Assembly: GCA_020060385.1 (NCBI GenBank)
Contig: JAGVAH010000048.1
Location: 645-64,644, forward strand
From: Syntrophobacterales bacterium
GTDB lineage: Bacteria > Desulfobacterota > Desulfobaccia > Desulfobaccales > 0-14-0-80-60-11
DNA length: 64,000 nucleotides
Direction of reading: 5' to 3'
This document shows, in pieces, positions 20,163-54,413 of this stretch (position 1 is its first letter; each line of letters begins with the position of its first letter). Position numbers and translations under genes: made by a program. The notes under the pieces were generated by a model. The model made no database searches. It worked only from the letters and a program-made list of their open reading frames with translations, and was not told the origin of the DNA.

Positions 20163-20299
20163 CCCCTGGCCCCCTTGCGCCACGTGCCTCTCACAGGAAT
20201 CTCAAACCAGGTCTCCGGCAAATGGTGGCCCAGGCTGGAAAGCCTGGGCCGGCGCAGCTTAAAGCCTGCGGCCACCCAAGACAGATTGACCTCCGCCCC

Positions 20300-22015: not shown

Positions 22016-22153
22016 ACTTAGAAGAGGGGCCAGGGCGGCGGAAGAGGCCGGAGATTAGAAGGGGGGAAATCCCGGGTTGGTGAACCGCGGCAGGGACCAG
22101 GGCCGCCGTCCCTGTTTCCCCCCAAGCCCAGAAGTACTTGGAGGAGAGCCCAA

Positions 22154-33107: not shown

Positions 33108-33833
33108 CTAATTCTTCTTCCTCAGGACGTAGATGACCCACGGCGCTATCGAGGTTTCGTTTAGCCAATCGTAGGGTTCATCTTCACGTCCGAGGGGTGT
33201 GTGATGCAGGACCAGATCGATTTCGCAGGTGGCAAATAGATGCAGGTAGTCTGCGTGCAACCAGAGAAGGTCCACCACGGGGCGCTGGTCCGCGACATCT
33301 TTCATCACGATCTTGACTGGGTCCCCACTTTGAGCATTATGGTTTTCCGGAAAATCCTTCGTCGTGAAAGATGCCCACTCGTGGGTGTAGATCTCGGGGG
33401 TCGAGCCCAGGATAATAATGTGCCCTGCACTATTCAGCAGGTCACGCAGACCACCTAAAAGCTCTCTGCGCTTGCCGACGCCGGGAATATTGTCAAACGT
33501 GAAGGCAGCCAGAACCAGGTCGAAGTGGCCGGGCTGGAACGAACTGAAATCCCCATCATCTATCAACCGATAGATGCCGCTTGGGTCGGCGTTCTGGGCC
33601 AGATCTATCATGCTGCTCGAAATGTCGATGCCAATTGCCTCAAAGCCAAGCCTTTTCAGAAACCTCGTAGAGCGTCCGGCCCCGCAACCGAAATCGAGAG
33701 CTACGCGTCCCTTGATGTGTTTGGCGATGATCCCGGGCAAGTCGCGGTACGCCAAATAGTAGGTGCCGGGGAACTCAAGAGTCGAATAAGCTTTCGCCCT
33801 CTGAGTGTCATCATAGACATTGAAAAATGACAT
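33108..33833 (-). CDS. Class I SAM-dependent methyltransferase
   Basis: ATG at 33833. The longer ORF-track start would overlap the kamA-like gene. Motif I VALDFGCGAGRSTRFL. Confidence 0.7.
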   Translation of the reverse strand: MSFFNVYDDTQRAKAYSTLEFPGTYYLAYRDLPGIIAKHIKGRVALDFGCGAGRSTRFLKRLGFEAIGIDISSSMIDLAQNADPSGIYRLIDDGDFSSFQPGHFDLVLAAFTFDNIPGVGKRRELLGGLRDLLNSAGHIIILGSTPEIYTHEWASFTTKDFPENHNAQSGDPVKIVMKDVADQRPVVDLLWLHADYLHLFATCEIDLVLHHTPLGREDEPYDWLNETSIAPWVIYVLRKKN

Positions 33834-33885
33834 GGTTTCTCCGCATCCCTTGACGCGCAAAGTGAAGGAGGTTCGATTGCAAAAA

Positions 33886-35316
33886 TCAGTGCAGCAAACA
33901 CTCGGTAACAGAGTAGCTGGGAAGGATCCGTTCACGATCCCCCTCGTCTGCAAACGGGAACCTTTCCCTGGCAAAGGCAGGCCGTAGCTGGTCAAACCAA
34001 GTGACATGGGGGTCCAATGCTGCGAAGAACACGGTCTTCACCAAGGCAGGATCCCGAGCCTGGGTGAAGTCGCAGATCAGGACCGGTTCATCCGCATGGA
34101 TCGCCGGGACACCCCCGTGGGCCCGGGAAAACGTTTCAATCATTCTGTCGTCCATTATGTCCCGTAGCGTGATCACGCCCATGATCCTCACTTTTCCGGG
34201 AAAAGCCGACATCGTCGGCCCTTGCACAGGCCGGGAAAGACCGGAGACGCTCGCATAAGCCTGCCTATATATCTCGTAGGCCCTTACGAGGGGGACCTCG
34301 AAGTAGTTTCTCGCGCCTGTGTCCCGTTCCACAAACATGTAGTAGGGGATAAGCCCCAGCCGGACTCCGGTTCGCCAGATAGAGGCCCAGACCTCGGGAT
34401 CGTCATTAACATGCCTGATGATCGGTGCCTGCATGCGGATTTGGGCGCCCGTATTGCGTATTCGCTGGATTGCCGCCCTCGCTATTTCAGGTTCGAGTTC
34501 CACTGGATGGGAGAAGTGGCCCATGATCGCCAAATGCCGATTGGCGGCGATTACCTCCTCAAAAAGTCTCAAGCAGTCGTCTGCATCTGGCTCCGAGACA
34601 AAGCGATAAGGCCAGGACGCGATGGCTTTTGTGCCGATGCGAATGTTCTGCACATGGTCTAGTTCGGGGATCAACAGGGGCTCTAGATATTTGCGCAGCA
34701 GTGTTGTCCGCATGATCATCGGGTCACCCCCGGTGATCAGCACATCCGTGACGTCTGGATGGGCCTTCAGATAGGCAACCAAGTCCACCGTGTCCTTGCT
34801 GGCAAACTTCACTCCTTCCATGTTAATAAACTGGGCCCAGCGGAAACAGTAGGTGCAGTAAGCATGGCACGACTGTCCATGGAAAGGGAAAAAGAGCACC
34901 GTTTCCCGATACTTGTGCTGCAGTCCCCAAAGAGGTCGCCCTTCGAATATAGGCACATTGTGAGTCAACTGCCCGGCCGGGTACGGATTCAAATCGAGCC
35001 GGATCCGCTGGATCACCCGGGCCAGGGAGTCTTGCGCATGGCCCTTGCGCAAGAGTGTCTCCACATCATGGTACTGCTCGGGGTCAAGCATTTCCCGTTG
35101 GGGGAACACAAGCTGGAAAACCGGATCGTTCGGCACCTTGGACCAGTCGATGAGGTTCTCCATGAGATAGCGGTTCGTTCGGAAGGGAAGAACTTGAGAT
35201 ACGACTTCCACAGCCGCCCGCAGATCGGGCTTCAGCCTCCTCCATTCGGGCGTTGCTGCCACGTTATGGATGCCAACCGCCTGATAGCGGATAGGTGTTG
35301 TCGCAGCTGGTTTCAA
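33886..35316 (-). CDS. KamA-family radical SAM aminomutase (lysine/glutamate 2,3-aminomutase-like)
   Basis: CHAYCTYCFRW (CxxxCxxC), GLQHKYRETVLF, ITGGDPM, and a C-terminal Lys-containing block (FPGKV). TTG start preceded by AAGGGAG. Confidence 0.8.
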   Translation of the reverse strand: MKPAATTPIRYQAVGIHNVAATPEWRRLKPDLRAAVEVVSQVLPFRTNRYLMENLIDWSKVPNDPVFQLVFPQREMLDPEQYHDVETLLRKGHAQDSLARVIQRIRLDLNPYPAGQLTHNVPIFEGRPLWGLQHKYRETVLFFPFHGQSCHAYCTYCFRWAQFINMEGVKFASKDTVDLVAYLKAHPDVTDVLITGGDPMIMRTTLLRKYLEPLLIPELDHVQNIRIGTKAIASWPYRFVSEPDADDCLRLFEEVIAANRHLAIMGHFSHPVELEPEIARAAIQRIRNTGAQIRMQAPIIRHVNDDPEVWASIWRTGVRLGLIPYYMFVERDTGARNYFEVPLVRAYEIYRQAYASVSGLSRPVQGPTMSAFPGKVRIMGVITLRDIMDDRMIETFSRAHGGVPAIHADEPVLICDFTQARDPALVKTVFFAALDPHVTWFDQLRPAFARERFPFADEGDRERILPSYSVTECLLH

Positions 35317-35367: not shown

Positions 35368-36141
35368 TCAGGACAGCCTCTGGCCGATAAACGCCGCGCC
35401 GATTGCGCCCCTGACTTGCGGATTGTCAGCCACAAAGACCTTCATTCCCAGCGCTTCCTCAAGCGCCCTGACCACGCCGCGGTTCAAGGCAACTCCTCCA
35501 CTCATTCCCAGAGGGCCGCTGATGCCCACAGTCCTGAGCAGCGAGATAGCCCGTGTGGCTATCGAGTTGTGGACCGCCTTGACGATATCCGGAATCGGCG
35601 TCCCCACGGCCACCAGTGACACCACCTCCGTCTCGGCAAACACCGTGCAGGTGCTGCTGATACGCACGGTGTTCTGGGAAAGCGCGGACACCTCCCCGAG
35701 GTCCGTAAGCTCCAGCCCCATAGCCTTCGCCGTAACCTCCAGAAATCTGCCGCAACCCGCGGCGCACTTGTCATTCATGGCGAAGGATTCCACATTCCCA
35801 GCCTCATCGATCCGAATAGCCTTGCTGTCCTGGCCGCCAATTTCCAGGATGGTTCTTATCTCCGGATTCAGGAGGTGCATCCCTATTGCATGGCAGGTAA
35901 TCTCGGAGATGTGTTTGTCGGCAAAGGGAACGTTCTCCCTCCCGTAGCCGGTGGTCACCACAAAGCCTATGTCATTGCGCGTCAGCCCTGCCTTGCCGAG
36001 CACATTCTCATAGGTCAATTCCGTGGCGGTCCGATTGCTGCCGCCGGTCAAAACGAGATCGAAGCCGATAACCTCCCAAGTCTCGTTCATGAGAGCAGCT
36101 TTTGTTGACAAAGAACCGACGTCAATACCTGCAGTGATCAC
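35368..36141 (-). CDS. BcrAD/BadFG-family ATPase: activator (archerase) of 2-hydroxyacyl-CoA dehydratase (HgdC/HadI/FldI type)
   Basis: MITAGIDVGSLSTKAALM (ASKHA phosphate-1). Bridging-cluster cysteines in CAAGCGRFLE and ISSTCTVFAE. GTG start after AAGGAGAG. Confidence 0.85.
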   Translation of the reverse strand: MITAGIDVGSLSTKAALMNETWEVIGFDLVLTGGSNRTATELTYENVLGKAGLTRNDIGFVVTTGYGRENVPFADKHISEITCHAIGMHLLNPEIRTILEIGGQDSKAIRIDEAGNVESFAMNDKCAAGCGRFLEVTAKAMGLELTDLGEVSALSQNTVRISSTCTVFAETEVVSLVAVGTPIPDIVKAVHNSIATRAISLLRTVGISGPLGMSGGVALNRGVVRALEEALGMKVFVADNPQVRGAIGAAFIGQRLS

Positions 36142-36164: not shown

Positions 36165-37382
36165 TTATTGCATGAGTTCCAAGAACGCGTCGACGCGGTT
36201 CTTGATATGGTTGAACGTATAGTTGTTCCTATCAACCAGGTCGATATTGATGGTCAGATACTTCAGCTTCCTGCTCGCCGCCAGATCCCTGAGCATAGGG
36301 TTGATTCCCATCATGTTCCTGCATCCCCACACGTTCGAGATCACAAACCCCTCAATGCCAAACGTTTCGCACATCCGTAACGTGTCCACCCGCATCCTCT
36401 CGGCATTCCAATGGTAGAGTATCGCTCTATGGGCCATGCTCCGCAGCGGCTCGTCCTCATCGAGAACCAATGCGTTCGCCTCCCATAGTGGTGCCCAATA
36501 GACGATGTCGACCACGCGGTTCATATATTGCAGCAGTTCGTGGGACTCCTCCGGTGCTTGACCTATCCACATTACCCGCTTGCCTTTTTTCTCCTCGCCT
36601 TTTGCCAGCTCCAGGGCCTCCTCGAACAACACTTTGCATATCTGCGCATTCTGCTTGGCGCCGAAGTAATTCATCCCAAATATCTCATGCAGTTCTCGAG
36701 AGACTCCAGCAAGCTTGTGGGTTTCCAGAAGTCGAATAGTCTCCGAGAAGTATTCCCGCGCCTGGTTGGAGTGTTCTACCGCGGCGCGCAATGAATCCGG
36801 GGCGAGTTCCACCCCGAACTCACCTTCCAGCTGCGATATCAAATATTGCATCTGCTTGACGAGATACCTCAGGGAGTCTTCATCGATCGTATCCGGCGTA
36901 TGCAATGGCAAAATCGGCACGCTATAGCGCTTCCCTGATATATAAATCAGCTTCGACAGCCCCTCGCAGGGTTGGTTGTTGGTCAAGACGACGTTGGGGC
37001 GCGGATAGCAATTTGCCAGCATCATGCCGTAAGGTCCCCGCAGGAAAGAACATATGTCCCTCGATAGATTCTGCTCTTCGGTCAGTTGCAGGATCCGGTT
37101 CACATCCGCAGATTGGGCCAGCATGTTCGACATCGACTCAATGTTCCAAGGGATGGCCTCAAAGGCAAAGGCAATCTCTGTGGGAAATTGCTCGGAGACA
37201 TACGCCACCCGCGACCGCTCCTTATAAGCCTCCACCAGTCGATGACAGTTGACGATGGAACGCATCCGCGAGGCCCTGAGTTGGGGGCCGTCTATCTCGG
37301 CATCGGGGCGAAGATCGCCGATCAGCCTAAGAAGGTTCTGATACTGAACGCTGCGCCTCTGTCCGTTTCTCTCTTGTTCCAA
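36165..37382 (-). CDS. 2-hydroxyacyl-CoA dehydratase D-component subunit (HgdA/HadB/FldB-like)
   Basis: The HGD-D family architecture is recognisable (AYVSEQFPTEIAFAFEAIPWNI, DICSFLRG, VWGCRNMMG). It lies adjacent to the second subunit and the activator. TTG start after GAGGTGGA. Confidence 0.65.
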   Translation of the reverse strand: MEQERNGQRRSVQYQNLLRLIGDLRPDAEIDGPQLRASRMRSIVNCHRLVEAYKERSRVAYVSEQFPTEIAFAFEAIPWNIESMSNMLAQSADVNRILQLTEEQNLSRDICSFLRGPYGMMLANCYPRPNVVLTNNQPCEGLSKLIYISGKRYSVPILPLHTPDTIDEDSLRYLVKQMQYLISQLEGEFGVELAPDSLRAAVEHSNQAREYFSETIRLLETHKLAGVSRELHEIFGMNYFGAKQNAQICKVLFEEALELAKGEEKKGKRVMWIGQAPEESHELLQYMNRVVDIVYWAPLWEANALVLDEDEPLRSMAHRAILYHWNAERMRVDTLRMCETFGIEGFVISNVWGCRNMMGINPMLRDLAASRKLKYLTINIDLVDRNNYTFNHIKNRVDAFLELMQ

Positions 37383-37391
37383 GTGTCCACC

Positions 37392-38525
37392 TCAAAACAT
37401 CCGGGATTCCAGAAATGTCTGTATCCGGGTCCTGATGCTGGCAAGGTTCGTGACGTTGCGCTCCGATTCGATAGACAAGACCGGGATTTTCGCCTCCCGC
37501 AGTCGCTCCAATACATAAGGGTAGTCGTGCAGGTTTGTGTCGCAGAATTTAATGGAGTAATAGATGACCGAATCGACCTGGTACTCTTGCACCAGATCTA
37601 GGATGTGCTGAATTCTGACATCAATCTCCAGCCTGCGGGCGCTGGTATACTTCTCCAGATAGTAATCGGCGATGGCGGTGACGGGCTCCGCGTCCGGATC
37701 GATCTGTCCTTCGAAATACTTGACTCCGTTGCTGATGTCCTCGCAGACCAGAGCGGCGCCCCCATTCTCAATGGCGTCGATGATGCCCTGTTGATCGAAG
37801 TAACTGCCGCAGATCATCACCCGGTGACCCTTCCGGGGGGCGGGCGGCGGCTCCGCCGCCGCCAGCGCCTCGAGCAGCGCCGACATTTTCCTGTTGAAAT
37901 GCTCCTTCAATCCCGTGGTGGCAGCCTTGACCACCTGTATCGACTCCCCCCCGGTCAGAACCTGTCGTCCTCCCTTCTTGTACCGGTAGAGCCGTTGCAT
38001 GAGCGTCCTCGACCGGTTGCAGATGTCGATGGCCTCTCGCAGCGCCTCCTCGGAGATCTTGCGCCCATACCGGTGTTCCATTTCGGTGATCAACTTTCGC
38101 AGCCGCTGGGCGAAATACTCCTTGGAGATGGCGCTCACATAGCAAGGAAGATCCAGAAAATAGGTCGTCATGGACGGGATATCCCGGGTCCATGCCTCCC
38201 AGAGCTTCTTTCTCATGTCGCAGGCGTCGGCGAAGATGACCCCATCGGCGAAATCGTAGACGCCGGCCAGCCCTTCGCTAAAGCAACTCAGCAGGTAGGA
38301 ACAATAGTTATTGCCGAGACGGGCGCAGGCATCGGTGGCGCTCGACTCCAATTCGCCCGTGATTCGCAAAGGGATCAGGCCCGCGGCCAGGAAGATCTCC
38401 TCTGGTGTTTGGATCGACACCCAACCGATCTTCGGGCTGTCCGCCGCTTTCCAAAGATCGAAGCGGTTCCGGTACAGATCCACAATACCTCGGATCGCCT
38501 GCCGTATCGTGTCTTCCCCCCTCAT
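37392..38525 (-). CDS. 2-hydroxyacyl-CoA dehydratase D-component subunit (HgdB/HadC/FldC-like)
   Basis: True start ATG at 38525 (MRGEDTIRQ...), overlapping the NRPS stop as ATGA. Motifs KIGWVSIQTPEEIFLAAGLIPLRI, NYCSYLLSCF and YYSIKFCDTNLHDYP. Confidence 0.65.
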   Translation of the reverse strand: MRGEDTIRQAIRGIVDLYRNRFDLWKAADSPKIGWVSIQTPEEIFLAAGLIPLRITGELESSATDACARLGNNYCSYLLSCFSEGLAGVYDFADGVIFADACDMRKKLWEAWTRDIPSMTTYFLDLPCYVSAISKEYFAQRLRKLITEMEHRYGRKISEEALREAIDICNRSRTLMQRLYRYKKGGRQVLTGGESIQVVKAATTGLKEHFNRKMSALLEALAAAEPPPAPRKGHRVMICGSYFDQQGIIDAIENGGAALVCEDISNGVKYFEGQIDPDAEPVTAIADYYLEKYTSARRLEIDVRIQHILDLVQEYQVDSVIYYSIKFCDTNLHDYPYVLERLREAKIPVLSIESERNVTNLASIRTRIQTFLESRMF

Positions 38526-41500
38526 GCAACCTCCGGGGCCATTTCCACCGAGGTGAGAGGCCGGAATTGGCCCCACAGAGTCTCGGACAGGTAATGGGAA
38601 ATGCTCGATATCGTCGGCGCCATGGACACCAAGCAAACGCTCGGCGCGATGCCAAAGGCGCTGTTGATTTGGACCATCAGATTCGCCGCCCCCAAGGAGG
38701 TCAGGCCGAGATCGAAGAGGTTGGCCTCCATCCCTACGGGCCCTACGCCCAACAGCTCCTCGACCATCGATGCCACCTTCTTGGCGATGGCCGCTGGCGG
38801 CACCGCGATTTCCTCGCGGTCCGCCGGCCTCTCGGGCATCGGCAGCCACTCGTATTGCACTGGGCCCCCCGCTGCCCGCGGTATCATGCCCACCTGTATG
38901 TAGTTGTCCGGGATCATATAGCCCGGCAACCATCGCCCCAGATGCAGCTTCACCTCTTCCACGAATAACTGCGGCACCGCAGGTACGCCGCCCCCCAGAA
39001 CCAGGAAGGCGACGAGGCGCTCCCGGTGCTGGACCTCATCGTCGAAGACGACTACCGCGTCCTCGATGCCGGGGTGGGATCTGAGACGCCCCTCGATCTC
39101 GGCAAGGCTGACTCGGTGGCCATCGATGCTCACCTCGTCGGGGCGACCCGTCAACTCGATACGGCCGTCAGGGAGCCACCGGGCCCAAACCCCTGTCCGG
39201 TACATCCTGCTGCCGGCAGCATACGGATTCATGGTGAATCCAGGCGCGGTTTCGTCCCCGCGGTCCCAATACCCCCTGGCCAGGCCGGCGCCGCCCACGC
39301 ACAGCTCCCCCGTGACGCCGATGGGCAGTAGGCCGCCGTCGTGGCCGAGGATGTAGACTTCCGAGTTCGTTATCGGTTTGCCGATAATGCCCCCCGCACC
39401 ATCCCCATTCACGGGGCAGCAGGTCGTTACTTCCGTATTTTCCGCGTGACCAAAGCATTTAACGAATTCGTATGAGCCCTTGCGCGCAGGGCTAACGTTG
39501 CGTCCGGAGGTAATCAACACCCGGAGCGCGGTATTCTCTGCTGGGGCCAAGTGATGGCAAAGGGGAGCAGGCAACCAGGCAATGGTCACGCGGCTCTGCG
39601 CCAAATACTGGTCAAGCGACTTGGCGTCGCGCCCGGCGCCTTCGGTAAGGATGCCAATGGACGCGCCCGCGGCCAGGAACGGAAATACCTCAAAGATGGT
39701 GGCGTTCGCGGTAAGATCTCCGTACTTGGCGCTGCGATCGTCGGGACTCACCGCGAAGCGTTCGGTATGCCACCGGCAGCGGTCGAACAAGGACCTGTGC
39801 TCGATCATCACCCCTTTCCAGGCGCCTGTGGGCTTGGCAACATAACTCACGTAAGCTAGCCCTCCAGCGTCTCGGAGAGGCTCGAGGTTCGAGCCATTGG
39901 GGTCGTAGTTCTTCTCATCTCCCAGGTCCACGAATGGTGTGGTGAAAGGAGTTATTTCGGCGGCGGCATGGCCCAGGACGAGCCTGGCGCCGCTTGCCGC
40001 CAAAAGCCGCTCGATACGCGGCCAGGGATAGCCCTGGCTCAACGGCAGGTATGCGGCCCCCGTTTTTAAAACCGCGAGGAGCCCCATGATCATCTCGAAG
40101 GAGGGCCGCACCATGACGCCAACGATGTCCCCTGCTCCGATCCCCTGCCTGCGCAGATACCGCGCCAACTGGTTGGCGCGCCGGTTCAGCTCACCATACG
40201 TCATGCTCTTATCGTCTAAGACCAGGGCCACCCGGTCGGGAGACTGCTCCGCTTGCCCCTCGAAGGCCGAAACCACATTTTCGCCACCGGCGCGCTCCAC
40301 CACCCCGCCGTTGAACCCGCAGAGAATCCTCTCCTTTTCGGGCTTGGTCAGGACTTCAATCTGACCCAACTCCCTGCCCGGCTCTGTTATCACTTGTTTG
40401 AGAACCTGAAGGTAATTTGCAGCCAGGCGTTTGGCGGTGCTCCGCCGGAAGAGGTCGGTGTTGTATTCCATTTCGAACTCAAGCTTTCCGTCCGTCTCCA
40501 CCGCCCCCAAGGCCAAGTCGAACTTCGCTACCGGGTAGCCTACGTCCATCTCCCGGACGGTCAACCCGGGCATCTCCAGGGCGCTGAAGGATTGATCCTG
40601 CACGACAAACACCGTGTTGAAGAGAGGCTGGCCACCGCTTCTCAGCATGTGGCCCAGCATCATCCCCCACAGCTGGTACTCCTGGCATTCCAAGGCCCCG
40701 CGGACGGCCGTCCTCACCTGCGCCAGGTACTGGTCGAAACGGAGCCGGGACTGCGGCCGACTCCTGACCAGGTGCGTGCTCACGAACATACCCACCACCT
40801 TCTGGACCTCAGCGATGTACCTGCCGGCGGTGGGCACGGCGACGATTATGTCCTCCTGGCGGCTATATTTCGATAACAGCACCCCGTACGCCGCCAGGAG
40901 GGCCATGAACAGCGTTACCTCGTGCTCGGCACAGAAAGTCTTCAGTGCACTTTGCACCCATGGCTCCGTCTCGAAGGTAATCCTGGTGCCGGCAGACGAG
41001 AAGTTCTGGGGACGCGGAAAGTCCGTATCCAGTCGCGGCAAAGGAGGCGGGTCCTCGAGGACGCTCAGCCAGTATTTCTCCTTCTCGCGAAACGGTTCGC
41101 TCTGCAGATGCTCACCAATCCACTCCGCAAAATCCTTAAAGGTCACCCCGGGCTCCGGCAGCTCTTCGCCCGCATAGAGCGCGGCCATCTCCTCAAACAA
41201 GATCCCCATGGAGGTGCCGTCGCTTACCAGGTGGTGCATGTCCATCAACAGCACCTGGCGGCCGGGTCCCAGGGGCACCAGGGCCGCCCGCAGCAGCGGC
41301 GCCACTCCCAGATCAAAGGGGCGAATGAAATCGCGAGCCACTTCCTCGATCTCGTCTTCGCCGCATCCCTCCAGGACACTGATGGCGAAATCGACCCTGG
41401 GGCTCACCCATTGCCTGGGCTGACCGCCCACCGTCCTGAACGACGTCCTCAACGTCTCATGGCGATGGATCAGTTGCCGAAAGGCGTTTTCCAACCTGGG

Positions 41501-44500
41501 GACGTCCAGATCGCCGTGGAGTTCGAAGGCCGTGGGCAGGTTATATTCCACACCCTTTCTGGAGGAGCAAAGGGCATACAATAAGGCCTGGGTCGGGGTG
41601 ACCGAGTAGTGCACCCGGCTTTCTGCGGCCTGGAGCACCATAGATTCGTGTTTGGTGACGTTTTCAAAGCAGCGGGCCAGCAAGGCGAGGGATTGGTTAT
41701 CGAACACGGCCCCTAAAGGGACACTCGCGTCAAACTCCCTGTTCGCCTTGGCCAGCATTATCGTGGCCCGCAGGGAATCGCCTCCGATTTCAAAGAAGCG
41801 ATCGTGGATGCCGATTTTTTTCCGGTCCAACACACTGCGCCAGATCTCGGCCAGTCTTTTCTCCGTGTCACTTCGAGGCGCTACATAACCTTGCCCCACC
41901 CCCAGGCTTGCTTCCGGGTTCGGTAACCTTGTGGTGTCGATCTTGCCCCGGGGGTTCAGAGGAATTGCATCGACGGTGAGCAGGAAGGCCGGTACCATGT
42001 AATCGGGGAGATGCCTGGCGAGGTGGGCTCTGAGCTCGGCCAGCTGCGCCGCCTCCCGCCAGACAATATAGGCGCAGAGGAACTTATTGTTCTCTTTATC
42101 CTCCCGGGGAACCACCACCGCATCCTGCACCGCTTCATGAGCGAGGATCGCCCCTTCGATCTCCCGCAACTCCGTCCGGCATCCCCGGATCTTGACCTGA
42201 TTGTCCGTCCGCCCGATGAACTCGAGGCTGCCGTCCGGAAGCCACTTGGCCACGTCGCCGGTGCGGTACATTCTCTCGCCCGGCACAAAGGGATCGGCCG
42301 CGAACTTCTCCGCCGTCCGCAGGGCGTCATTAAGATAACCGCGGGCCAAGCCCACACCGGCAATGCATAGCTCGCCCGGGGCCCCAATGGGCACCACTTC
42401 ATTGGCTTTCCCCAGCAGGTACACCCGCGTATTGGCCACCGGCTTGCCGATGGGTATCCTCTCCTCCTCGATTCGCACCGTGCAGCTGGTGGCGACGACC
42501 GTATCCTCCGTGGGCCCATAGTTATTCACCACCTGGTAACTCTTTGGCCTGAGGCGACGCAGGCGGTCACCGCCGGTCAGCAGCGTGCGCAAAGACTTGT
42601 TGTCCAACTCCATAAACAATTCGCACACCTGCGTCGGCAGGAAACAGATGGTGATGCCCTTCTCTTCGAAATAGCGATTGAGCCGGGGCAGGTCCAGCCG
42701 CATCGCCTCTTTGATCACATGGAGAGCGGCTCCTGCCTGCAGATAAGGGAAAATTTCCCAAACAGAGGCGTCGAAACTAAAGAGGGCGTACTTCGTGGCC
42801 CGATCGGCGGCGGTTACCCCGAAGGTGTTGATATGCCAGGCGCACAGGTTGTTCACGGAGTGATGCTCGATCATGACCCCTTTCGGCGCTCCGGTCGTCC
42901 CCGAGGTGTAAATCACATACGCCAGATCCCGGCCATATACTGCGTGTGCGAGATTCGAGTCGTCACCCCCATAGAGTCCGGGGTCGCCCAGGTCCAGAAC
43001 GAGCCGTGATGCATCTCTCCACTTGGCGCCGCCAGCCTCGAGGACGATCTGCGCGCCACTATCCTTAAGCATGGTCCGCACTCTATCTTCGGGACAATCG
43101 GGATCGATGGGCAGGAAGGCACACCCCGCTTTCAGAATAGCCAGTATGCCGACGATCATCTCGAGCGACGGTCCGGCGATGATGCCCACGACTTCTTCCC
43201 GGGCAACTCCCTTGCTCACCAGGGCGCGCGCGACCTGATTGGCGCGTCCATTGATCTCCAGGTAGGAGAGGGACAAATTTCCGTAAACAACGGCAACGTT
43301 GTCAGGGTTCTTGTCGACTTGCTCTTCGAAGATCTCGTGAATGCTCCGCTGGGCCGGGTAGCCGCTGGCGGAGGGATTGAAGCCGATGAGAATCTCCCGC
43401 CGCTCCTCCTCGGTGAGCGGATCGAGGTCGGCTATTTTACGGTCGGGGTGATGGACGATCTGCTCCAGGATATTTCTGTAGTGCAGGCTGAGCCGCTCCA
43501 TGGTGTCCTTACGGAATAGCTTGGCGCAGTATTCCAGTTCGAAATCAAGTCTCTCTTCCCCCTCGGCGGCCAACAGGGTCAGGTCGAACTTCGAGATCTT
43601 CCACTCGAAGTTGAGCCGCTTGACGGTCAGCCCATCTATTTCGAACTTCTCGCTGCCCTCGTCCAGGGAGGCGAACACCGTGTCGAAGAGCGGATTCCTG
43701 CTGAGATTTCTGTCCAGCATCAGCTTATCCACGAGTTCCTCGAACTGGTATTCCTGATTGGCGTAGGCATCGAGCGCATTGCTCCTCACCAGGCGGAGGA
43801 ACTCCCGGAAGGTGAGCTCGCCCCTCGGCTGATTGCGCATCGCCAGGGTATTGACGAACATGCCCACGACTCTTTCCAGCGACGGCTCATTCCGTCCCAC
43901 CACTGGCGTGCCCACGATAATGTCTTCCTGGCCTGCGTATTTCGACAAGAGAACCGTGTAGGCAGCCAACAAAATCATATGCATGGTCGCCCCGCAGTCC
44001 CGGCAGATCGCTCGAAGACCCTCCACGGTCGGGGTGTCGGCCTGGAAGGTCACCAGGCCGCCCTCGAAGGACTGCACCGCCTGGCGCGGGTAGTCTGTGG
44101 CCAGGTTGAGAACCGGCAGTTCACCTGCGAATAACTCTGTCCAGTAGGCTCCCTGCGCCAGCACCGCTTCGCTTTGGGAGCGGGCCCGTTGCCAGGCCGC
44201 GTAGTCCTTGTATTGGATCGCCGGCGGTTCGAGGGTTTGCCTCCGGTAGAGCGAGCAGAGTTCATCGAGTATGATCTCCACGGAAATCCCGTCCGAGACG
44301 ATATGGTGCATATCGACGATGAGCGAGTGCACCGACTCTCCGGACTTGACGATCGCAGCCCTTATGAGCGGTGCTTTACTCAAGTCGAAGGGGCGCACGA
44401 ACCGCTCGATTTCCTGCTGAATCGCCGCCTCACCAGTCGAGGAAATGTACTCGAAGGCAAAGTCCGGACACTGATGCACCTTCTGGACGATCCTTTCGTC

Positions 44501-47500
44501 AACCAGGGCGAAGGACGTTCTGAGAGGCTCGTGTCTCGCTATAAGTGCGCCAAATGCTTGCTCCCACCGCTCAGCGTCAAAGGGCCCCGTGATCTCCATC
44601 GCCCAGGGGACGTTATACTGGACATCCGCGGGCGCCAGTTGATTCAGGATGTAGAGCCGTTCCTGAGCCGACGACACCGGGTAGTACTCCCGCTCGCCCA
44701 CCGGCTCTATCAGAACCGGCGAATCCTCCCCGGTGAGTTCGACCCGGGCCGCCAGTTTCCGAATAGTTGGCTGCGCGAATACGTCCCGCAAGGAGATGCT
44801 CGCCTTAAGCTCCCGGTTGGCCCTCCCGGTCATGAAAATCGCCTTCAGGGACTGCCCGCCGAGCTCGAAAAAGTTGTCGTCGATGCCCACTCTCCCGACT
44901 CCCAGAACCTGTTCCCAGATCCGGGCCATCACAGTCTCTGTCTTGGACCTGGGAGCCGTGTATGTATGAGAACTGACGATGAGCGCCAGCGGGTCCGGCA
45001 ACTCCTTCTTATCGAGCTTCCCCCCCCGGGCGATGGCAAAGCGCCGCAGCGGCACGAACCAGGCCGGGATCATGTATGGCGGGAGATACTCTGCCAGCCC
45101 AGCCCGCAACTCCGTGGCCGGGATTTCACCATCTGCGACGAAGTAGGCGCAGAGACAGGTATCCCCGGCGGCGTCCACCCTAGTGGTCACGAGGGCTTCT
45201 TTGATCTGCGGAAAGCGGAGCAAACTGGCTTCGATCTCCCCCAGTTCGATCCGGAAGCCCCGGATTTTTACCTGATCGTCGTTCCGTCCCAGATACTCGA
45301 TGTTTCCATCCGGCAGCGTTCGGGCCAGGTCGCCGGTTTTGTACATGCGCAGAGGCGTTGGCCCTATGCGGTTCATGACAAAGCGCTCATCCGTAAGGAG
45401 GGGATTGTTCAGATAGCCTCTTGCCAGGCAGACCCCGGCGACGCACAGCTCTCCCGTCACTCCCTCGGGCACCGGGTGGCCGTATTGGTCCAGCAAGTAG
45501 ATGCCGGTATTGTCAATGGCCTGGCCGATGGGGACGGACAGGGCTGTATCGGTCCGGGGCTCGTACTTATGAATCATGCAGCCAACAGTGGCTTCTGTAG
45601 GCCCGTATTCGTTGAATATCTCAATCCGGCCCCCGAAACTCGCGTGAATCTTGGCGGCCAGACTCGTTTTCAGGTCCTCCCCGCCCACAATGATCTTTCG
45701 AAGCCTGCTCCCGTTCCGGTCAAGTTCTCCATCCACTGCGCCCAAAAGACTCAGATGCGTCGGCGTGAGCTTGATCAACTCCACCTGGTTGTCCCTGATG
45801 ATGTCCTCGATCAGGGCCACGGCATCGTCGAGCCGATAGATGACGATGCGGTTGCCCGACACCAAGGGCACGAAGATCGACGTCACCGTGAGATCCACCG
45901 ACAAGGGTGAATGCAGCGCAAAGGAGATTTTCTCCTGGCCCACGTAAGTCTTCGTGGCCCAGGTAATATAATTGGCAAGAGCGCCGTGGGACACCATCAC
46001 TCCCTTCGGGGTGCCGGTGGAGCCGGAGGTATAGATGACGTAAGCCAAGTCCTGGGAGTCGATGGCTGGCAGCGCCGGCAACTCCTCCACTGCGGACCAC
46101 GCCTCTTTATCCAGCTGCATGATTGCCAGGCCAGGCCAGGCGAAGGGTCCCGGGTCGCCTGCTATTAATAACGCGGCCATGCGTGCATCCGCGGCGATCT
46201 TTCGAAACCTCTCCCCGGGAGTCGTCGGATCCAGGGGCAGGTACGCCGCGCCGAGCTTGAGCACCCCCAGAATGGCGATAATCATCTCGAATGACGGCGG
46301 GGCCACCAGACCCACAAGATCGCCCCGGTCTACCCCCTGCTCCCGGAGTCTTTGAACCAGGGCGTTCGATCGCCTGTCCAGCTCGCCGTAGCTCAGGGTC
46401 TCTCCCCTGGACGAGAGTGCCGGTGCGGCCGGGGCTTTCCGAGCCTGGGCCCGGAAGAGATCCGCGACGTTGTTGGGGCTCGCCGCGTTAGGGACTGGCG
46501 GAAGGACCAGACGCTGTCTCTCCCGGGCGGTCAAGATGTTGATATCAGATAGTTTGACGCGGGGATCGGCGGCAATTTCTTCGAGAATGTTCAGATAGTG
46601 ACCAGACAGTCTCTCAATCGTCTGCCGTCGGAAAAGGTCCGTGCGGTACTCGAATTCCAGCACGAATCGTTGATCTGGCCCCTCGATCTGCGTCAGACTG
46701 AGCTCGAACTTGGAAATCTGATAGTCGAGTTCGTAAAGGCTGAAGTCGACTCCTCCGTGGCGGCTAACTCCCCCATCGTAGGAGAGTGCGCCGAACATCG
46801 TGTCAAACAGGGGGTTCCGGCCCAGGTCCCGGGGCGGGTTGATCCTGTCCACCAAGTCTTCGAATTGGTAGTCCTGGTGTTCAAAGGCGTTCAGGCATTC
46901 CCCCCGCACCTGCTTGAGGTACTCCACAAACTCCAACTCGCCTTGGGGTTGACTCCTCAAGAGTAGCGTGTTGACGAATAAGCCGACCACTCCTTGAAAT
47001 TCCTCGGCTCGCCTCCCGGCCACCAAAGTGCCGACAATGATGTCCTCCTGACCGGCATACTTCGACAGTAAAATGTTGTAGGCCGAGAGCAAGAGCATAA
47101 ACATCGAGGTGCGGTTCTTCACTGCCAGGGATCGCAGGGCGGCAGTGAGCTCCTTGCCGGGACGCACAAACACGCGGTCTCCTGCCTGGGATTGATCCCG
47201 TTTCCGGAGATAGTCCGTCGGCAGGTTCAACACGTGCCTTCCGTCCAGCAGCTGCAGCCAGTAATCCTCTTGTTTCCTGGCCTCCGCCGTCTTGGCGAAG
47301 CGTCTCTGCCAGAGCGCAAAATCCTGGTACTGGCGCTGCAACTCTGGCAGACTCTGCCCCCCGTAGAGCCGGCCCAGCTCGTCAAGCAGGATGTCGACGG
47401 AGACAGCGTCGCAAATGATGTGGTGCAGGTCCAGCAAGAGAACGTGTTCAGCCTTCTCCAGCCGGACCAGGCAGGTACGCAATAGCGGCGCGCGGTGCAG

Positions 47501-47827
47501 ATCGAAAGGCCGGACAAAGCTCTGGTTGATCTCTTCGATCTCCCCCTTACTCTTGGCGTCCCGCAGGGGCAGGGGCAGGGAAACCCGTTCTTTGATCCTT
47601 TGCACGACCTCCTCCCCGGCAATCCCGAAGGAGGTCCTCAGGCCGGAGTGCCGCGCCACGAGAGCCGACAGGGCCTGCCGCAGCCGGCGCACATCCAGTT
47701 TCCCCTCCAGCCGCAGGGCAACCGGCACATTGTACTCGGTGCTTTCCGGGGATAAGCGGTTGAGTATGTACATGCGCTTCTGGTTAGCGGACGCCGGGAA
47801 GCACAGTAGTTTAGGGGGCGATGCCAT
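38522..47827 (-). CDS. Non-ribosomal peptide synthetase, three modules C-A-T / C-A-T / C-A*-T (third A domain degenerate, no TE)
   Basis: ATG at 47827 after AAGGAGG. C motifs HHIICDAVS, HHIVSDGIS, HHLVSDGTS. A3 motifs IYTSGSTGTPKGV and IYTSGTTGAPKGV, against the degenerate VSYVAKPTGAWKGV. T motifs LGGQSL, IGGDSL, LGLTSL. Confidence 0.95.
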   Translation of the reverse strand: MASPPKLLCFPASANQKRMYILNRLSPESTEYNVPVALRLEGKLDVRRLRQALSALVARHSGLRTSFGIAGEEVVQRIKERVSLPLPLRDAKSKGEIEEINQSFVRPFDLHRAPLLRTCLVRLEKAEHVLLLDLHHIICDAVSVDILLDELGRLYGGQSLPELQRQYQDFALWQRRFAKTAEARKQEDYWLQLLDGRHVLNLPTDYLRKRDQSQAGDRVFVRPGKELTAALRSLAVKNRTSMFMLLLSAYNILLSKYAGQEDIIVGTLVAGRRAEEFQGVVGLFVNTLLLRSQPQGELEFVEYLKQVRGECLNAFEHQDYQFEDLVDRINPPRDLGRNPLFDTMFGALSYDGGVSRHGGVDFSLYELDYQISKFELSLTQIEGPDQRFVLEFEYRTDLFRRQTIERLSGHYLNILEEIAADPRVKLSDINILTARERQRLVLPPVPNAASPNNVADLFRAQARKAPAAPALSSRGETLSYGELDRRSNALVQRLREQGVDRGDLVGLVAPPSFEMIIAILGVLKLGAAYLPLDPTTPGERFRKIAADARMAALLIAGDPGPFAWPGLAIMQLDKEAWSAVEELPALPAIDSQDLAYVIYTSGSTGTPKGVMVSHGALANYITWATKTYVGQEKISFALHSPLSVDLTVTSIFVPLVSGNRIVIYRLDDAVALIEDIIRDNQVELIKLTPTHLSLLGAVDGELDRNGSRLRKIIVGGEDLKTSLAAKIHASFGGRIEIFNEYGPTEATVGCMIHKYEPRTDTALSVPIGQAIDNTGIYLLDQYGHPVPEGVTGELCVAGVCLARGYLNNPLLTDERFVMNRIGPTPLRMYKTGDLARTLPDGNIEYLGRNDDQVKIRGFRIELGEIEASLLRFPQIKEALVTTRVDAAGDTCLCAYFVADGEIPATELRAGLAEYLPPYMIPAWFVPLRRFAIARGGKLDKKELPDPLALIVSSHTYTAPRSKTETVMARIWEQVLGVGRVGIDDNFFELGGQSLKAIFMTGRANRELKASISLRDVFAQPTIRKLAARVELTGEDSPVLIEPVGEREYYPVSSAQERLYILNQLAPADVQYNVPWAMEITGPFDAERWEQAFGALIARHEPLRTSFALVDERIVQKVHQCPDFAFEYISSTGEAAIQQEIERFVRPFDLSKAPLIRAAIVKSGESVHSLIVDMHHIVSDGISVEIILDELCSLYRRQTLEPPAIQYKDYAAWQRARSQSEAVLAQGAYWTELFAGELPVLNLATDYPRQAVQSFEGGLVTFQADTPTVEGLRAICRDCGATMHMILLAAYTVLLSKYAGQEDIIVGTPVVGRNEPSLERVVGMFVNTLAMRNQPRGELTFREFLRLVRSNALDAYANQEYQFEELVDKLMLDRNLSRNPLFDTVFASLDEGSEKFEIDGLTVKRLNFEWKISKFDLTLLAAEGEERLDFELEYCAKLFRKDTMERLSLHYRNILEQIVHHPDRKIADLDPLTEEERREILIGFNPSASGYPAQRSIHEIFEEQVDKNPDNVAVVYGNLSLSYLEINGRANQVARALVSKGVAREEVVGIIAGPSLEMIVGILAILKAGCAFLPIDPDCPEDRVRTMLKDSGAQIVLEAGGAKWRDASRLVLDLGDPGLYGGDDSNLAHAVYGRDLAYVIYTSGTTGAPKGVMIEHHSVNNLCAWHINTFGVTAADRATKYALFSFDASVWEIFPYLQAGAALHVIKEAMRLDLPRLNRYFEEKGITICFLPTQVCELFMELDNKSLRTLLTGGDRLRRLRPKSYQVVNNYGPTEDTVVATSCTVRIEEERIPIGKPVANTRVYLLGKANEVVPIGAPGELCIAGVGLARGYLNDALRTAEKFAADPFVPGERMYRTGDVAKWLPDGSLEFIGRTDNQVKIRGCRTELREIEGAILAHEAVQDAVVVPREDKENNKFLCAYIVWREAAQLAELRAHLARHLPDYMVPAFLLTVDAIPLNPRGKIDTTRLPNPEASLGVGQGYVAPRSDTEKRLAEIWRSVLDRKKIGIHDRFFEIGGDSLRATIMLAKANREFDASVPLGAVFDNQSLALLARCFENVTKHESMVLQAAESRVHYSVTPTQALLYALCSSRKGVEYNLPTAFELHGDLDVPRLENAFRQLIHRHETLRTSFRTVGGQPRQWVSPRVDFAISVLEGCGEDEIEEVARDFIRPFDLGVAPLLRAALVPLGPGRQVLLMDMHHLVSDGTSMGILFEEMAALYAGEELPEPGVTFKDFAEWIGEHLQSEPFREKEKYWLSVLEDPPPLPRLDTDFPRPQNFSSAGTRITFETEPWVQSALKTFCAEHEVTLFMALLAAYGVLLSKYSRQEDIIVAVPTAGRYIAEVQKVVGMFVSTHLVRSRPQSRLRFDQYLAQVRTAVRGALECQEYQLWGMMLGHMLRSGGQPLFNTVFVVQDQSFSALEMPGLTVREMDVGYPVAKFDLALGAVETDGKLEFEMEYNTDLFRRSTAKRLAANYLQVLKQVITEPGRELGQIEVLTKPEKERILCGFNGGVVERAGGENVVSAFEGQAEQSPDRVALVLDDKSMTYGELNRRANQLARYLRRQGIGAGDIVGVMVRPSFEMIMGLLAVLKTGAAYLPLSQGYPWPRIERLLAASGARLVLGHAAAEITPFTTPFVDLGDEKNYDPNGSNLEPLRDAGGLAYVSYVAKPTGAWKGVMIEHRSLFDRCRWHTERFAVSPDDRSAKYGDLTANATIFEVFPFLAAGASIGILTEGAGRDAKSLDQYLAQSRVTIAWLPAPLCHHLAPAENTALRVLITSGRNVSPARKGSYEFVKCFGHAENTEVTTCCPVNGDGAGGIIGKPITNSEVYILGHDGGLLPIGVTGELCVGGAGLARGYWDRGDETAPGFTMNPYAAGSRMYRTGVWARWLPDGRIELTGRPDEVSIDGHRVSLAEIEGRLRSHPGIEDAVVVFDDEVQHRERLVAFLVLGGGVPAVPQLFVEEVKLHLGRWLPGYMIPDNYIQVGMIPRAAGGPVQYEWLPMPERPADREEIAVPPAAIAKKVASMVEELLGVGPVGMEANLFDLGLTSLGAANLMVQINSAFGIAPSVCLVSMAPTISSISHYLSETLWGQFRPLTSVEMAPEVA

Positions 47828-50800
47828 CGCGGCCCTCCTTTTCCATGCCGTTGGCCACCACCATTGCCAACTCCGCCACTGTCGGCGAATCAAACACCGT
47901 CCTGAGTGTTACCTCCACGCCGAACTCAGCGCTCAACCGGGAGGCCAATAGGCTCGCCTTCAACGAATGTCCGCCCATCTCGAAGAAGTTGTCGAAGGGA
48001 CCGATGTTCGAGGTCCCCAGCAACTCCCCCCATATTTGGGCGACGCTTATCTCCAGGGGGCTTCGCAGCGGGGTGCCCTTATCCTCCGCCTCCGGACGCG
48101 GCCGCGGCGCCGGGAGCGCCCGCAGGTCGATCTTGCCGCTCTCCGTCAACGGCAGCCGCTCCACTTGGCAAAAGTGGGAAGGCAGCATGTAGGGGGGCAG
48201 CAAGCCGGTGAGATGCTGGCGCAGATCCGCAGCAGAGGCAGGCGGCTGCGCCACATAATACGCACAGAGGCGCCTGGTTCCATCCTCACCGGCCGCCGCC
48301 GTGACGACGGCTTCCTTCACCTGGGCGTGCTCGATCAGCCTGTTTTCGATCTCACCCAGCTCGATCCGGAAGCCCCTGATCTTGACCTGCCGATCGGCTC
48401 GCCCCACGAACTCGATGATCCCGTCGGCACGCTGTTTCACGAGATCTCCAGTCTTGTAGATTCTTTCTCCGGGAACGAAGGGGTTAGGGATGAAGCGCTC
48501 AGCGGTCAGCTGGGCCCGGTTCAGATAGCCCCGCGCCAGGCCGTCCCCACCCACGTACAACTCACCGATGGCGCCGGGGGGCGAAAACGACATCTCCCGG
48601 TCGAAGATATATGCCTGCGAGTTCGGCACCGGCCTGCCGATGGGGATCGTCCTGGGTTCCGGTTGCGTAATCGGGTGGTAGGTGGAAAAAACGGTGTTCT
48701 CTGTGGGCCCATAGGCATTGACCACGGTGAGTGAGGGATTTGCCCTCCAGACCCTCTCGACGTGATTTATCGAGAGCACGTCTCCCCCCGTGATCAAGGT
48801 CTTCAAGGGCCGAAACAGCGTCGCATCCGCATCTGCCAATTGATTAAGCAGGGGGGGGATCAAGAACATGATACTGATGCGGTTCTCCGCCAGGAATTGA
48901 CCGAGTGCCCTGGCATTCAGCAGGACATCATCGCCTGCAAAATAGAGCGTCAGTCCGTTGAGAAGCGAACCCCAGATCTCGAAGGTCGTGGCGTCGAAGG
49001 AGGGAGCGCTGGTCTGCAGTAACCGGTCACCCGCGCCCATTCCCAGATAGTTCAAATTCATGGCCAGGTTGACCACGCCCCGGTGCTCCACCATGACACC
49101 CTTGGGCGCGCCCGTCGATCCCGAAGTGTAGATAACGTATGCCAGGTTCGACGGTCTTGCCGCGGGGCGCGGATGGCACTCATCAGCCTCGTTGGCGCCG
49201 CAGTCCCTGAGTCGGACCACCGGACCCTCGAATTCCACCGCCTCCCGGAAAGCGTCCGGCAGGATCAACACCCGTGGCCCTGCGTCACGCAGTATCTCCT
49301 GAATTCGTTTCCCCGGGCTATTCTCGGCAATGGGCAGATATGCGCCTCCGGCTTTCAGGATGCCGAGGTATCCCAACACCGTCTCGAAGGAGCGCCCGCC
49401 GACGATGGCCACGATGCTCTCAGGCCCGACGCCGTGATCCCGGAGGACCATCGCCAGGCGATCTGCTTTTTGGTTGGCTTCCCCGTAGGTAAGCGCGGTG
49501 TCGCCGTCCACAATCCCCAGAGCATCGGGTCTTTGGCCCGCTTGTGCCTCGAACAACTCGTGCACGCATTTATTCCGGGCATAGGGAGTATGCGTCAGGT
49601 TCCAGCTCTCGAGGAGCTGCCGCTTCTCTTCTGCATCCACCAGCTCAAGTTTGTTCAAGCCCACGTCCCAGCCCGAACAGAGTTGGCTGAGGAGCGTGGT
49701 GTAGTATTTCGCCAGCCGCACCACCGTGCTCGTCTGGAAGAGGTCCGTATTGTGCTCGATGCGGATCTCCGCGCCCTTGGCGCCCCAATGCATGTCGAAG
49801 ATCAAGTCCACCTGGACGGCATTCGTTTGGGTGGCCACATCGATCCATTGTTCCCGTTCCACCCCCTTAAACCGATTCTCGTCATGCGTGTGCGGCACCA
49901 TGTTGAACATCGTCCGGACCAAGGGTACCCGGCTGTCACCCCGAGCCGGCGCCAGCTTCTGCACGAGCCTCTCAAAGGGATAATCCTGCATGTAATACGC
50001 GGCCTCTACCTGTTCCTGCACCAGGTCCACGAGCTGGCTGAAGGTGTATCCCCAGCGGACCCGGACCCGAATCGCCGTCATGTTCACGAAGTAACCGGTG
50101 AGGTCCTGCAGCTCCGGGCAGTAATGCCGCCCGGAGAAAAAAACGCCCACCGCAATGTCCTCTTGCTGACAATACTTCTGCAGCAGCACATAAAAGGCAG
50201 CGAGGAAACTGGAAAAGGGCAGGACACCTTTCTCCCAACTGAGCCTCTGTAATTTGTCGACCAGGTCCTGGGGGATATCGACAATCGTCAGCCCGCCTTT
50301 GAAAGAAATAGAGGGGGAAGGCGCGAAATCAGTGGGCAAATCGAGGGCCGGCATCTCCTCGTGGAATTGGGAGAGCCAATATTCCTCTTGTTCCCGGGTC
50401 TGCTCCTCAGAAAAATGACGGCGCTGCCAGATGGCGTAGTCCGCATACTGGATCGCTTTCGCCGGGAGCGAACCCCTTCCGCCTCGCGCCAGATCGTTAT
50501 AGAGAAGCGTGAGATCCCGCCACAGGAGATCCACCGACGCGGCATCAGAGATGATGTGATGCACGCGCAGCAACAGGACATGGTCTCCGGCGCCCAGCTT
50601 GAGCAATACCACTCCGAACAGCAAATCGTCATAAGTCCACTTCGAGATCGGTTTTTGACAGATCTGGGAAATCCCCGAGGAAAGTGCCCCCTCGACGTCA
50701 CCCTGCGCCTCCTTCGACATGTCGATATACCTAAACGCCTTGCCGGTATCTTGGTCGAAGGATTGCCCCGGGCCGTCGATACCCCGGGAAATCTTCGTTC

Positions 50801-54244: not shown

Positions 54245-54413
54245 ATCCTCTCTCCTGACCGCCTGTCCGCCATGAGAATGCGTCATAAAAGTCCAAGGCA
54301 GACAACTTGGATGACGATCTGACAAACTGCTTAAGGTACCCTAGCGATTGGAGGAAAGTGGTCAAATCGCTGGCTTGCCGCCTGGTAGCCCAATGACCTC
54401 TTTCGACATGCTC

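Follow-up and report, generated by a model that had tools for sequence, protein, structure and literature searches.

A degenerate adenylation domain retained in the last module of a nonribosomal peptide synthetase that lacks a thioesterase

Nonribosomal peptide synthetases (NRPSs) without a thioesterase (TE) are known, and in HMWP2 of yersiniabactin biosynthesis an adenylation (A) domain loads across modules. Inactive A domains are a known exception among NRPSs and are complemented in trans in the albicidin, cystobactamid, ramoplanin and enduracidin systems (PMC8949500, PMC7966384); the cystobactamid line depends on a shuttle that carries the residue from CysH to the module with the inactive A domain (PMC7966384). 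Loading between modules that bypasses a degenerate but retained A domain has been shown for the fungal synthetases SidD and SidC (PMC10192304). Here we describe a degenerate A domain, A3*, in the last module of NRPS-3, a synthetase of 3101 aa encoded at 38522-47827 (-) in a stretch of 64,000 nucleotides from a Syntrophobacterales bacterium (GCA_020060385.1, contig JAGVAH010000048.1, positions 645 to 64,644), hereafter the window. A literature search found no published description of this cluster, and the cluster family is uncharacterised and widely dispersed. Inactive A domains break the colinearity of NRPSs, and documented cases improve the prediction of products from sequence.

Motif loss and retention in the terminal module

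NRPS-3 has the domain order C-A-T-C-A-T-C-A*-T (C, condensation; T, carrier domain) and its Pfam content consists solely of C, A, T and AMP-binding_C. Its longest open reading frame covers 38522-47893 (-); the orthologues start at the Met equivalent to M23 of this frame, and with that start the length given by an earlier sequence-only reading of the window is borne out. The last unit, C3-A3*-T3, is module 3 of NRPS-3 and module 5 of the whole assembly line.

The A3* domain lies at 38834-40276 (-), the strand on which all its motifs lie. It keeps the structural motifs A1 (MTYGELN, 40184-40204), A6 (GELCVGGAGLARGY, 39269-39310) and A9 (LPGYMIP, 38909-38929), whereas the catalytic ones are lost. 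Motif A3, the P-loop, is degenerate and reads LAYVSYVAKPTGAWKGV (39809-39859) where the paralogous domain A2 has LAYVIYTSGTTGAPKGV; A4 reads LTAN (39704-39715), A5 CFGHAENTE (39431-39457), A7 YRTGVWA (39182-39202), A8 GRPDEVSIDGHRVSLAEIE (39092-39148) and A10 AAGGPVQYEW, with Pro at the position of Lys517 (38846-38875). A3* was aligned column by column with the cluster's four intact A domains and free ligase. Compared with A2 in this alignment, A3* has YVAKPTGAWKG for YTSGTTGAPKG in A3, TANA for FDAS in A4 (Asp235, which binds the alpha-amino group of the substrate, replaced by Asn), KCFGHAE for NNYGPTE in A5, YRTGV for YRTGD in A7, GRPD-EVSIDGHRVSLAEIE for GRTDNQVKIRGCRTELREIE in A8 and GGPVQ for RGKID in A10, where the catalytic Lys517 is gone. 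The motifs quoted for module 3 in the sequence-only reading all occur in the translation, at or within a few bases of where it had placed them, and its contrast between lost catalytic and kept structural motifs holds in this alignment.

Scoring with profile hidden Markov models agreed with the alignment. On TIGR01733, A3* reached 291.8 bits and fell under the cut-off of 317.4, while its four siblings scored 394.8-426.3; on PF00501 it scored 199 bits against 257-280 for the others, and on PF13193, the profile of the C-terminal subdomain, 33 bits. The homology to A domains is plain, as the family profile matched two A domains of LgrA with 427 and 356 bits, and judging by these matches A3* retains the sequence architecture of an A domain, core and C-terminal subdomain included. 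An AlphaFold2 model of A*-T3 built from a 6-sequence alignment had a mean predicted local distance difference test score (pLDDT) of 50 and a predicted template modelling score of 0.38. We regard A3* as almost certainly dead in catalysis; it would neither bind ATP productively nor make an aminoacyl-adenylate. Its closest paralogue is A2 (41864-43357 (-); code DAWFLGNVVK by hand extraction, which predicts Leu), with 40% identity and 353 bits, and C3 is likewise closest to C2. A recent duplication of module 2 was ruled out, the identity between A3* and A2 being just 40%.

To place these lesions in a family, we searched with the module-3 region and obtained 15 orthologous proteins of 2933-3137 aa, 48-61% identical in that region, from Bradyrhizobium japonicum, B. 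jicamae, a Rhodospirillales metagenome-assembled genome (MAG) and many metagenome contigs. All 15 carry the A3* lesions. The P-loop is degenerate in each of the 16 family members, two of which (P0043 and P0075) have five of its residues deleted; residue 235 is N, S, G, V or R, the position of the A7 Asp (413) is V, N, D, I, E, Y, L or Q, and that of Lys517 is P, R, S, V or H. A3* and T3 are the fastest-evolving domains, with mean pairwise identities of 0.56 and 0.47 against 0.64-0.71 for the others and with 16% and 9% invariant columns against 26-36%. The ratio of nonsynonymous to synonymous substitution rates (dN/dS), taken from the unsaturated pair B. japonicum and B. jicamae (dS 0.16-0.30), nevertheless points to purifying selection on both, at 0.30 in A3* and 0.34 in T3; A1 and A2 have values of 0.21-0.25, the C domains of 0.17-0.25. 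The reading frame is open in 16 of 16 sequences, with no frameshifts or stops, and A3* carries family-specific conserved blocks, namely EVSIDGHRV, RC.G.AE with an invariant Cys 322, and DRSAKYGD. The lesions are ancestral to the family and the domain is under purifying selection. "Decayed", the word of the sequence-only reading, does not apply in the sense of a recent loss, given lesions shared with 15 orthologues and a dN/dS of 0.30. A profile search of 1.84 billion representatives, dominated by giant multi-A NRPSs and with P0017 as the sole family member, found no intermediate with an intact A3. A scan of contigs with one generic A-domain pattern gave B. jicamae as the only true family member among the matches listed.

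The domains on either side of A3* are well preserved. C3 (40304-41611 (-)) is an LCL-like condensation domain with an intact HHLVSDG motif, and its HHxxxDG signature is intact in every family member; its best solved relative is the C domain of TycC6 (296 bits) and its dN/dS is 0.19. T3 (38588-38791 (-)) has the motif LGLTSL (38693-38710 (-)) with the carrier Ser codon at 38696-38698, and its PF00550 score of 45.5 bits exceeds the cut-off (20.8). All 16 family sequences have this Ser, and the LG..S core is invariant as well. The best solved relatives of T3 are peptidyl carrier proteins (PCPs). An acyl-carrier-like nature, which LGLTSL might suggest, was ruled out on these relatives and on the distance of T3 from the free carrier protein of the cluster. 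The common lesions, the dN/dS values and the intact T3 Ser and C3 motif together indicate that A3* is long dead and yet kept, and that the module is in use. We propose that A3* would be an ancestrally dead, selectively kept scaffold joining C3 to T3, and that C3-A3*-T3 would work as an elongation or termination module.

A more distant cluster in Paenibacillus ehimensis (GCA_000612225.1, JFHX01000040.1, 30443-53661; loci L091 and L093) ends in a C-T module with no A remnant. A terminal carrier without an A domain is thus built into the design of the wider cluster family.

Charging of the terminal carrier domain

As A3* is unable to adenylate and T3 is a maintained carrier, T3 must be charged by another enzyme; that it is functional and served in this way we consider highly probable. 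The cluster encodes an Sfp-type phosphopantetheinyl transferase (PPTase; 60860-61702 (-)), a conserved member, which would phosphopantetheinylate T3, and an adenylating enzyme other than A3* would then charge it. The motif losses, the conservation, the selection and the absence of a TE are observed, unlike the identity of this loader and the mode of chain release, which we infer. By a narrow margin we prefer cross-module loading by one of the four in-line A domains. Two of these would come into question: the A domain of NRPS-1 (code DVTNFALIYK by hand extraction) on the ancestry of the carrier domains, and A2, the predicted Leu domain, on the ancestry of A* and C3 and on proximity. Among all carriers compared, T3 scores best against the A-less terminal T domain of Paenibacillus (100), which in turn is nearest to NRPS-1-type T domains (160 and 153, against 75 to the T domain upstream of it), and this chain of similarity points to the NRPS-1 A domain as a possible in-line loader. 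Taken whole, with a dead but retained A3*, a working module and an in-line loader, this is the best explanation we can offer, and we offer it with some reserve.

The stand-alone ANL ligase of the cluster (58417-59952 (-)) has intact motifs and had been named in the sequence-only reading as the obvious candidate for loading in trans. Its start is overlapped by 17 nt by the gene of a free-standing carrier protein of 89 aa, hereafter CP (59936-60205 (-)), which starts MSIRDM and has its Ser in GLLTSLD. On PF00550 CP scores 20.5 bits, just below the cut-off, and its orthologues 29-30 bits. CP also lies directly upstream of the ligase in the Rhodospirillales MAG (L003), in Blastochloris viridis (L092), in P. 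ehimensis (L091), in Paramaledivibacter (L099) and in a Gemmatimonadota genome (L100; CP070666.1, 1855483-1877009). The last of these has CP, ligase (47% identical) and an acyl-CoA dehydrogenase (ACAD) without any NRPS, beside glycosyltransferases, an epimerase and an acetyltransferase-like gene. The CP-ligase-ACAD set is an independent evolutionary unit, and its occurrence without an NRPS shows that the ligase owns a cognate acceptor. FDG (with the equivalent of Asp235), Arg330 and the A10 Lys of the ligase do not vary among its relatives, down to 50% identity, and its specificity positions D-G-S-H-S-I-M-R-S-K (hand alignment) are invariant down to Paenibacillus and Desulfobacteraceae relatives of 47-50% identity. 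The pairing of Asp235 and Arg330 would suit an amino-dicarboxylate substrate. The best solved relative of the ligase is an NRPS A domain, the second of LgrA (265 bits).

NRPS-1 (51020-54325 (-), C-A-T) opens with a C domain and so needs a carrier-bound donor, for which CP is the sole candidate. A classical starter C domain is not supported here, since the LCL domain of TycC6 matches this domain with 196 bits and starter-C structures with 54-72 bits. In the usual grammar of acyl initiation, a carrier protein, a ligase and an ACAD precede a C-starting NRPS, as with DptE/DptF of daptomycin and LipA/B/D of friulimicin. More probably, then, CP and the ligase form a starter module that feeds the C domain of NRPS-1.

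Several observations weigh against our preferred explanation. Within the window's family T3 resembles the T domain of NRPS-1 no more than T1 or the T domain of NRPS-2, and T2 least (hhalign scores 54-68), so that the argument from carrier similarity rests on one Paenibacillus intermediate. The cluster has six carriers, CP counted, for five adenylating enzymes, and this excess is solved equally well if the ligase serves both CP and T3. CP is weakly detectable by profile, and solely against the T domain of NRPS-1 and T3. Both the equivalent of Asp235 and the A10 Lys are present in the ligase, whose neighbour is a PP-loop enzyme, as in the trans modules of albicidin and cystobactamid. Besides, retention of the A3* fold is argued from homology, the model of A*-T3 having the low pLDDT noted above.

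Most of these points favour the strongest alternative, in which the ligase would supply T3 in trans, directly or through CP, after tailoring on the carrier by the PP-loop protein, an AsnB-type amidotransferase and the ACAD, by analogy with albicidin and cystobactamid. No other stand-alone adenylating enzyme is encoded, and every version of the cluster has the ligase, that of Paenibacillus with its A-less terminal module among them. Carriers exceed adenylating enzymes by exactly one in both cluster types (four against three in Paenibacillus). The FDG, Arg330 and A10 Lys of the ligase are maintained, the PP-loop gene is translationally coupled to that of the ligase, and the similarity of CP is seen just to the two carriers named. 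Loading by the ligase would also explain why a trio of HGD-type radical enzyme genes stands beside the terminal carrier in both families, and there is precedent for it (PMC7966384, PMC8949500). Against it stand the cognate carrier of the ligase, which works with CP and ACAD elsewhere without an NRPS, and the acyl-initiation layout of CP, ligase and ACAD before a C-starting NRPS; diverting the ligase to T3 would leave the C domain of NRPS-1 without a donor. T3 is PCP-derived and only faintly like CP. Moreover, Pfam and NCBIfam reveal no shuttle of the SyrC/CmaE/CysB type (alpha/beta-hydrolase fold) among the cluster genes, and none was detected in five orthologous loci, L001 (B. japonicum), L002 (the Rhodospirillales MAG), L007, L008 and L009. 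The gene overlap with CP, the NRPS-free set, the C-starting NRPS-1, the PCP ancestry of T3 and the missing shuttle make the ligase a less obvious loader than had been thought, although the other half of that claim, that T3 is charged by some enzyme other than its own A domain, stands. We therefore treat supply by the ligase in this full form as doubtful. Put as a plain question of which enzyme loads T3, an in-line A domain is our tentative answer, the ligase or CP has nearly the same chance, and anything else is less likely.

A second alternative gives A3* a non-canonical role in catalysis or binding, for instance as a platform on which the radical enzyme trio or a trans loader would dock, or through some non-adenylating activity. 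Purifying selection on about 480 residues that no longer adenylate would fit such a role, as would the family-specific blocks with their invariant Cys 322 and the coupling of the downstream HGD-D gene by an ATGA overlap. Several of the blocks, however, also occur in A2 (DR..KY, LP...C), the Paenibacillus relative manages without the domain, and no motif typical of another enzyme class was found in A3*, which makes the proposal improbable. Module 5 could instead be vestigial or skipped, with the chain leaving from T2, for example if C3 serves as a terminal C domain that cyclises the chain or caps it with an amine, and with A3* and T3 as relics. The fast evolution of these two domains agrees with this, as does the lack of any enzyme that could be named for loading or release. 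Against it, the frame is open throughout the family, dN/dS (0.30-0.34) is well under 1, neither the carrier Ser nor the LG..S core varies, T3 scores well above the Pfam cut-off, and the Paenibacillus relative dropped its A domain and kept the terminal T; we find a skipped module more improbable still. Sequencing or assembly errors or strain-specific pseudogenisation, the objection raised in the sequence-only reading itself, have next to no chance of accounting for the A3* motifs, as they are excluded by the open frame, by the dN/dS well below 1 and by the same substitutions in 15 independent assemblies of diverse taxa and metagenomes.

Chain release and gene neighbourhood

Following T3, only 21 residues remain (38525-38587 (-)), a tail with no domain whose sequence and length differ among orthologues; NRPS-3 thus ends 57 residues past the carrier Ser, or 21 past the Pfam envelope of the T domain. 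No TE (PF00975), reductase domain (R; PF07993) or terminal C domain follows T3 in cis. On this the sequence-only reading was right, though its distance of some 30 residues from the T domain to the end of the protein was too long. PF00975 gave 0 matches in the whole 99.95%-complete genome, which also has no homologue of the Paenibacillus TE. Matches to PF07993 in the genome are weak and on other contigs, none of them beside the cluster, and PF00144 proteins are encoded on other contigs only. No hydrolase was found in the five orthologous loci, and the TE-like matches in the Rhodospirillales MAG are weak and on other contigs. The chain would accordingly rest on T3 without a release domain in cis, and off-loading would need a trans factor or a spontaneous step. 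The suggestion of release by an unrecognised mechanism or by an enzyme encoded elsewhere continues to hold, with no PF00975 in the genome and no recognisable release enzyme in the cluster.

The only conserved genes physically coupled to T3 are those of an HgdAB/double-cubane-type radical enzyme trio. It comprises a first HGD-D family subunit of the HgdA/BzdN/double-cubane-like kind (37392-38525 (-)), a second HGD-D family subunit (36165-37382 (-)) and an HgdC-type activase (35368-36141 (-)). In 6 of 6 copies (the window and the five orthologous loci) the stop of NRPS-3 overlaps the HGD-D start by 4 bp, as GCATGA. The first subunit scores 184.6 bits against double-cubane reductases, 155 against BzdN and 143.8 against HadC, a 2-hydroxyacyl-CoA dehydratase, so by similarity the trio may have reductase rather than dehydratase activity. 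A plain substitution of the trio for a TE was ruled out, as Paenibacillus has both. The trio may tailor the residue bound to the carrier. It is conceivable, if rather unlikely, that a terminal carrier with a dead or missing A domain and the radical trio make up one functional unit acting on the T3 thioester, by processing on the carrier or by off-loading without a TE.

All cluster genes from that of an orphan protein of 132 aa (60367-60765 (-)), first in order of transcription, to that of a methyltransferase (33108-34007 (-)) form one long minus-strand operon. Between CP with the ligase and the NRPS genes lie the PP-loop protein (57386-58420 (-); 344 aa, weakly related to N-acetyl-sugar amidotransferases), the AsnB-type amidotransferase (55601-57382 (-)) and the ACAD (54414-55604 (-)); NRPS-2 (47811-51023 (-), C-A-T) stands between NRPS-1 and NRPS-3, and a KamA-family radical S-adenosylmethionine (SAM) protein (33886-35316 (-)) follows the activase. 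The genome has no C domains beyond the five of the cluster. The C domains of NRPS-1 and NRPS-2 (within 47811-54325 (-)) are a subgroup of their own, with the N-terminal motif L(S/T)FQQERVLY, 42% identity to each other and 28-34% to the three of NRPS-3; HHxxxDA occurs in both and in C1 of NRPS-3, and HHxxxDG in C2 and C3. The orphan protein is kept in the Rhodospirillales MAG (L003 746-1180) and in B. viridis (L092 9093-9566) at 39% identity, with two conserved beta-rich blocks that flank an acidic low-complexity linker; it has no Pfam match, and an AlphaFold2 model of it as a possible hidden hydrolase had a pLDDT of 45.

The order PP-loop, AsnB, ACAD, NRPS-1, NRPS-2, NRPS-3, two HGD-D genes and activase is the same in all five orthologous loci, the metagenomic L009 having three HGD-D genes instead of two (19156-22715). 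A KamA-like gene comes next in four of them and is missing in L002; the methyltransferase is present in L001, L007 and L009, the contig of L008 stopping short of that position, and the PPTase in L001, L002 and L009. Immediately upstream, the MAG (65% identity) and B. viridis have an orthologue of the ligase, and about 45 more at 60% identity or above are found in public data. In B. viridis (L092; AP014854.2, 1840322-1861890), a cultured phototroph, MobA/TraD, transposase and integrase genes adjoin the front half of the cluster, made up of PPTase, orphan, CP, ligase, PP-loop, AsnB, ACAD, NRPS-1 and NRPS-2; the stretch examined ended before the back half. A search of 40 genomes related to that of the window, 8 of them congeneric, did not find the A3*/T3 region, and transposase, integrase or conjugation genes stand beside the cluster in other genomes. 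From this patchy distribution and the flanking mobile genes, the cluster has probably been transferred horizontally.

Comparison with described systems

Genome-mining tools would predict a sixth residue from a domain that is unable to load one. The useful traits of this system are a full-length dead A domain kept across distant hosts (a relative of sulfate reducers, Bradyrhizobium and a Rhodospirillales MAG), a natural A-less variant in Paenibacillus and the lack of a TE. It lends itself to two questions, the purpose of keeping a dead A domain and the way in which a bacterial NRPS frees its product with no TE, R or terminal C domain, and there are cultured hosts in B. japonicum, B. jicamae, P. 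ehimensis and B. viridis (at least for the front half of the cluster).

A relative outside the family is the P. ehimensis cluster, with genes for the beta and alpha subunits of an electron transfer flavoprotein (ETF), CP, ligase, PP-loop, radical SAM, AsnB, ACAD, C-A-T, C-A-T-C-T, TE, two HGD-D subunits, activase and a MATE exporter, in this order. The ETF alpha subunit carries a ferredoxin domain, and the radical SAM protein has 608 aa. It shares with the cluster described here the front cassette of CP, ligase (50% identity), PP-loop, AsnB and ACAD, the C-starting NRPSs, the terminal module without a working A domain, and the two HGD-D genes with their activase after the NRPS. It differs in having three modules only, the ETF genes, the extra radical SAM gene and a free-standing PF00975 TE between the NRPS and HGD-D genes.

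Acyl-initiation cassettes of the daptomycin and friulimicin type likewise have CP, an ANL ligase and an ACAD directly upstream of a C-starting NRPS. Unlike them, the present cluster has a first C domain that is LCL-like (196 against 54-72 bits), and AsnB and the PP-loop protein are inserted in the cassette.

The cystobactamid system (CysK module 3, CysH and CysB) and albicidin, with NRPS-2* and its trans A-T protein, resemble the present cluster in an in-line C-A*-T module without the A10 lysine (PMC7966384, PMC8949500), and in having a stand-alone adenylating enzyme, a carrier and a PP-loop or amide-activating function in the same cluster. In the present case six core motifs are degenerate and not one, and the dead module is the last; A, T and PP-loop are three separate proteins, there is no shuttle of the CysB/SyrC/CmaE type, the main line has no TE, and the stand-alone pair resembles a starter module.

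The SidD and SidC synthetases differ from the bacterial, multi-protein system of the window in that the degenerate domain of SidD is an N-terminal truncation, whereas A3* is of full length with point-degenerate motifs, and T3 has no special similarity to the T domain of the module next to it. The likeness lies in the carrier kept downstream, functional in SidD (degenerate A domain, module 2) and SidC (A-less modules 4 and 5) (PMC10192304) and, judging by its conservation, putatively so in the window. It extends to the origin of the module, as the paralogy of A3* with A2 and of C3 with C2 is consistent with a module duplication followed by the loss of one A domain.

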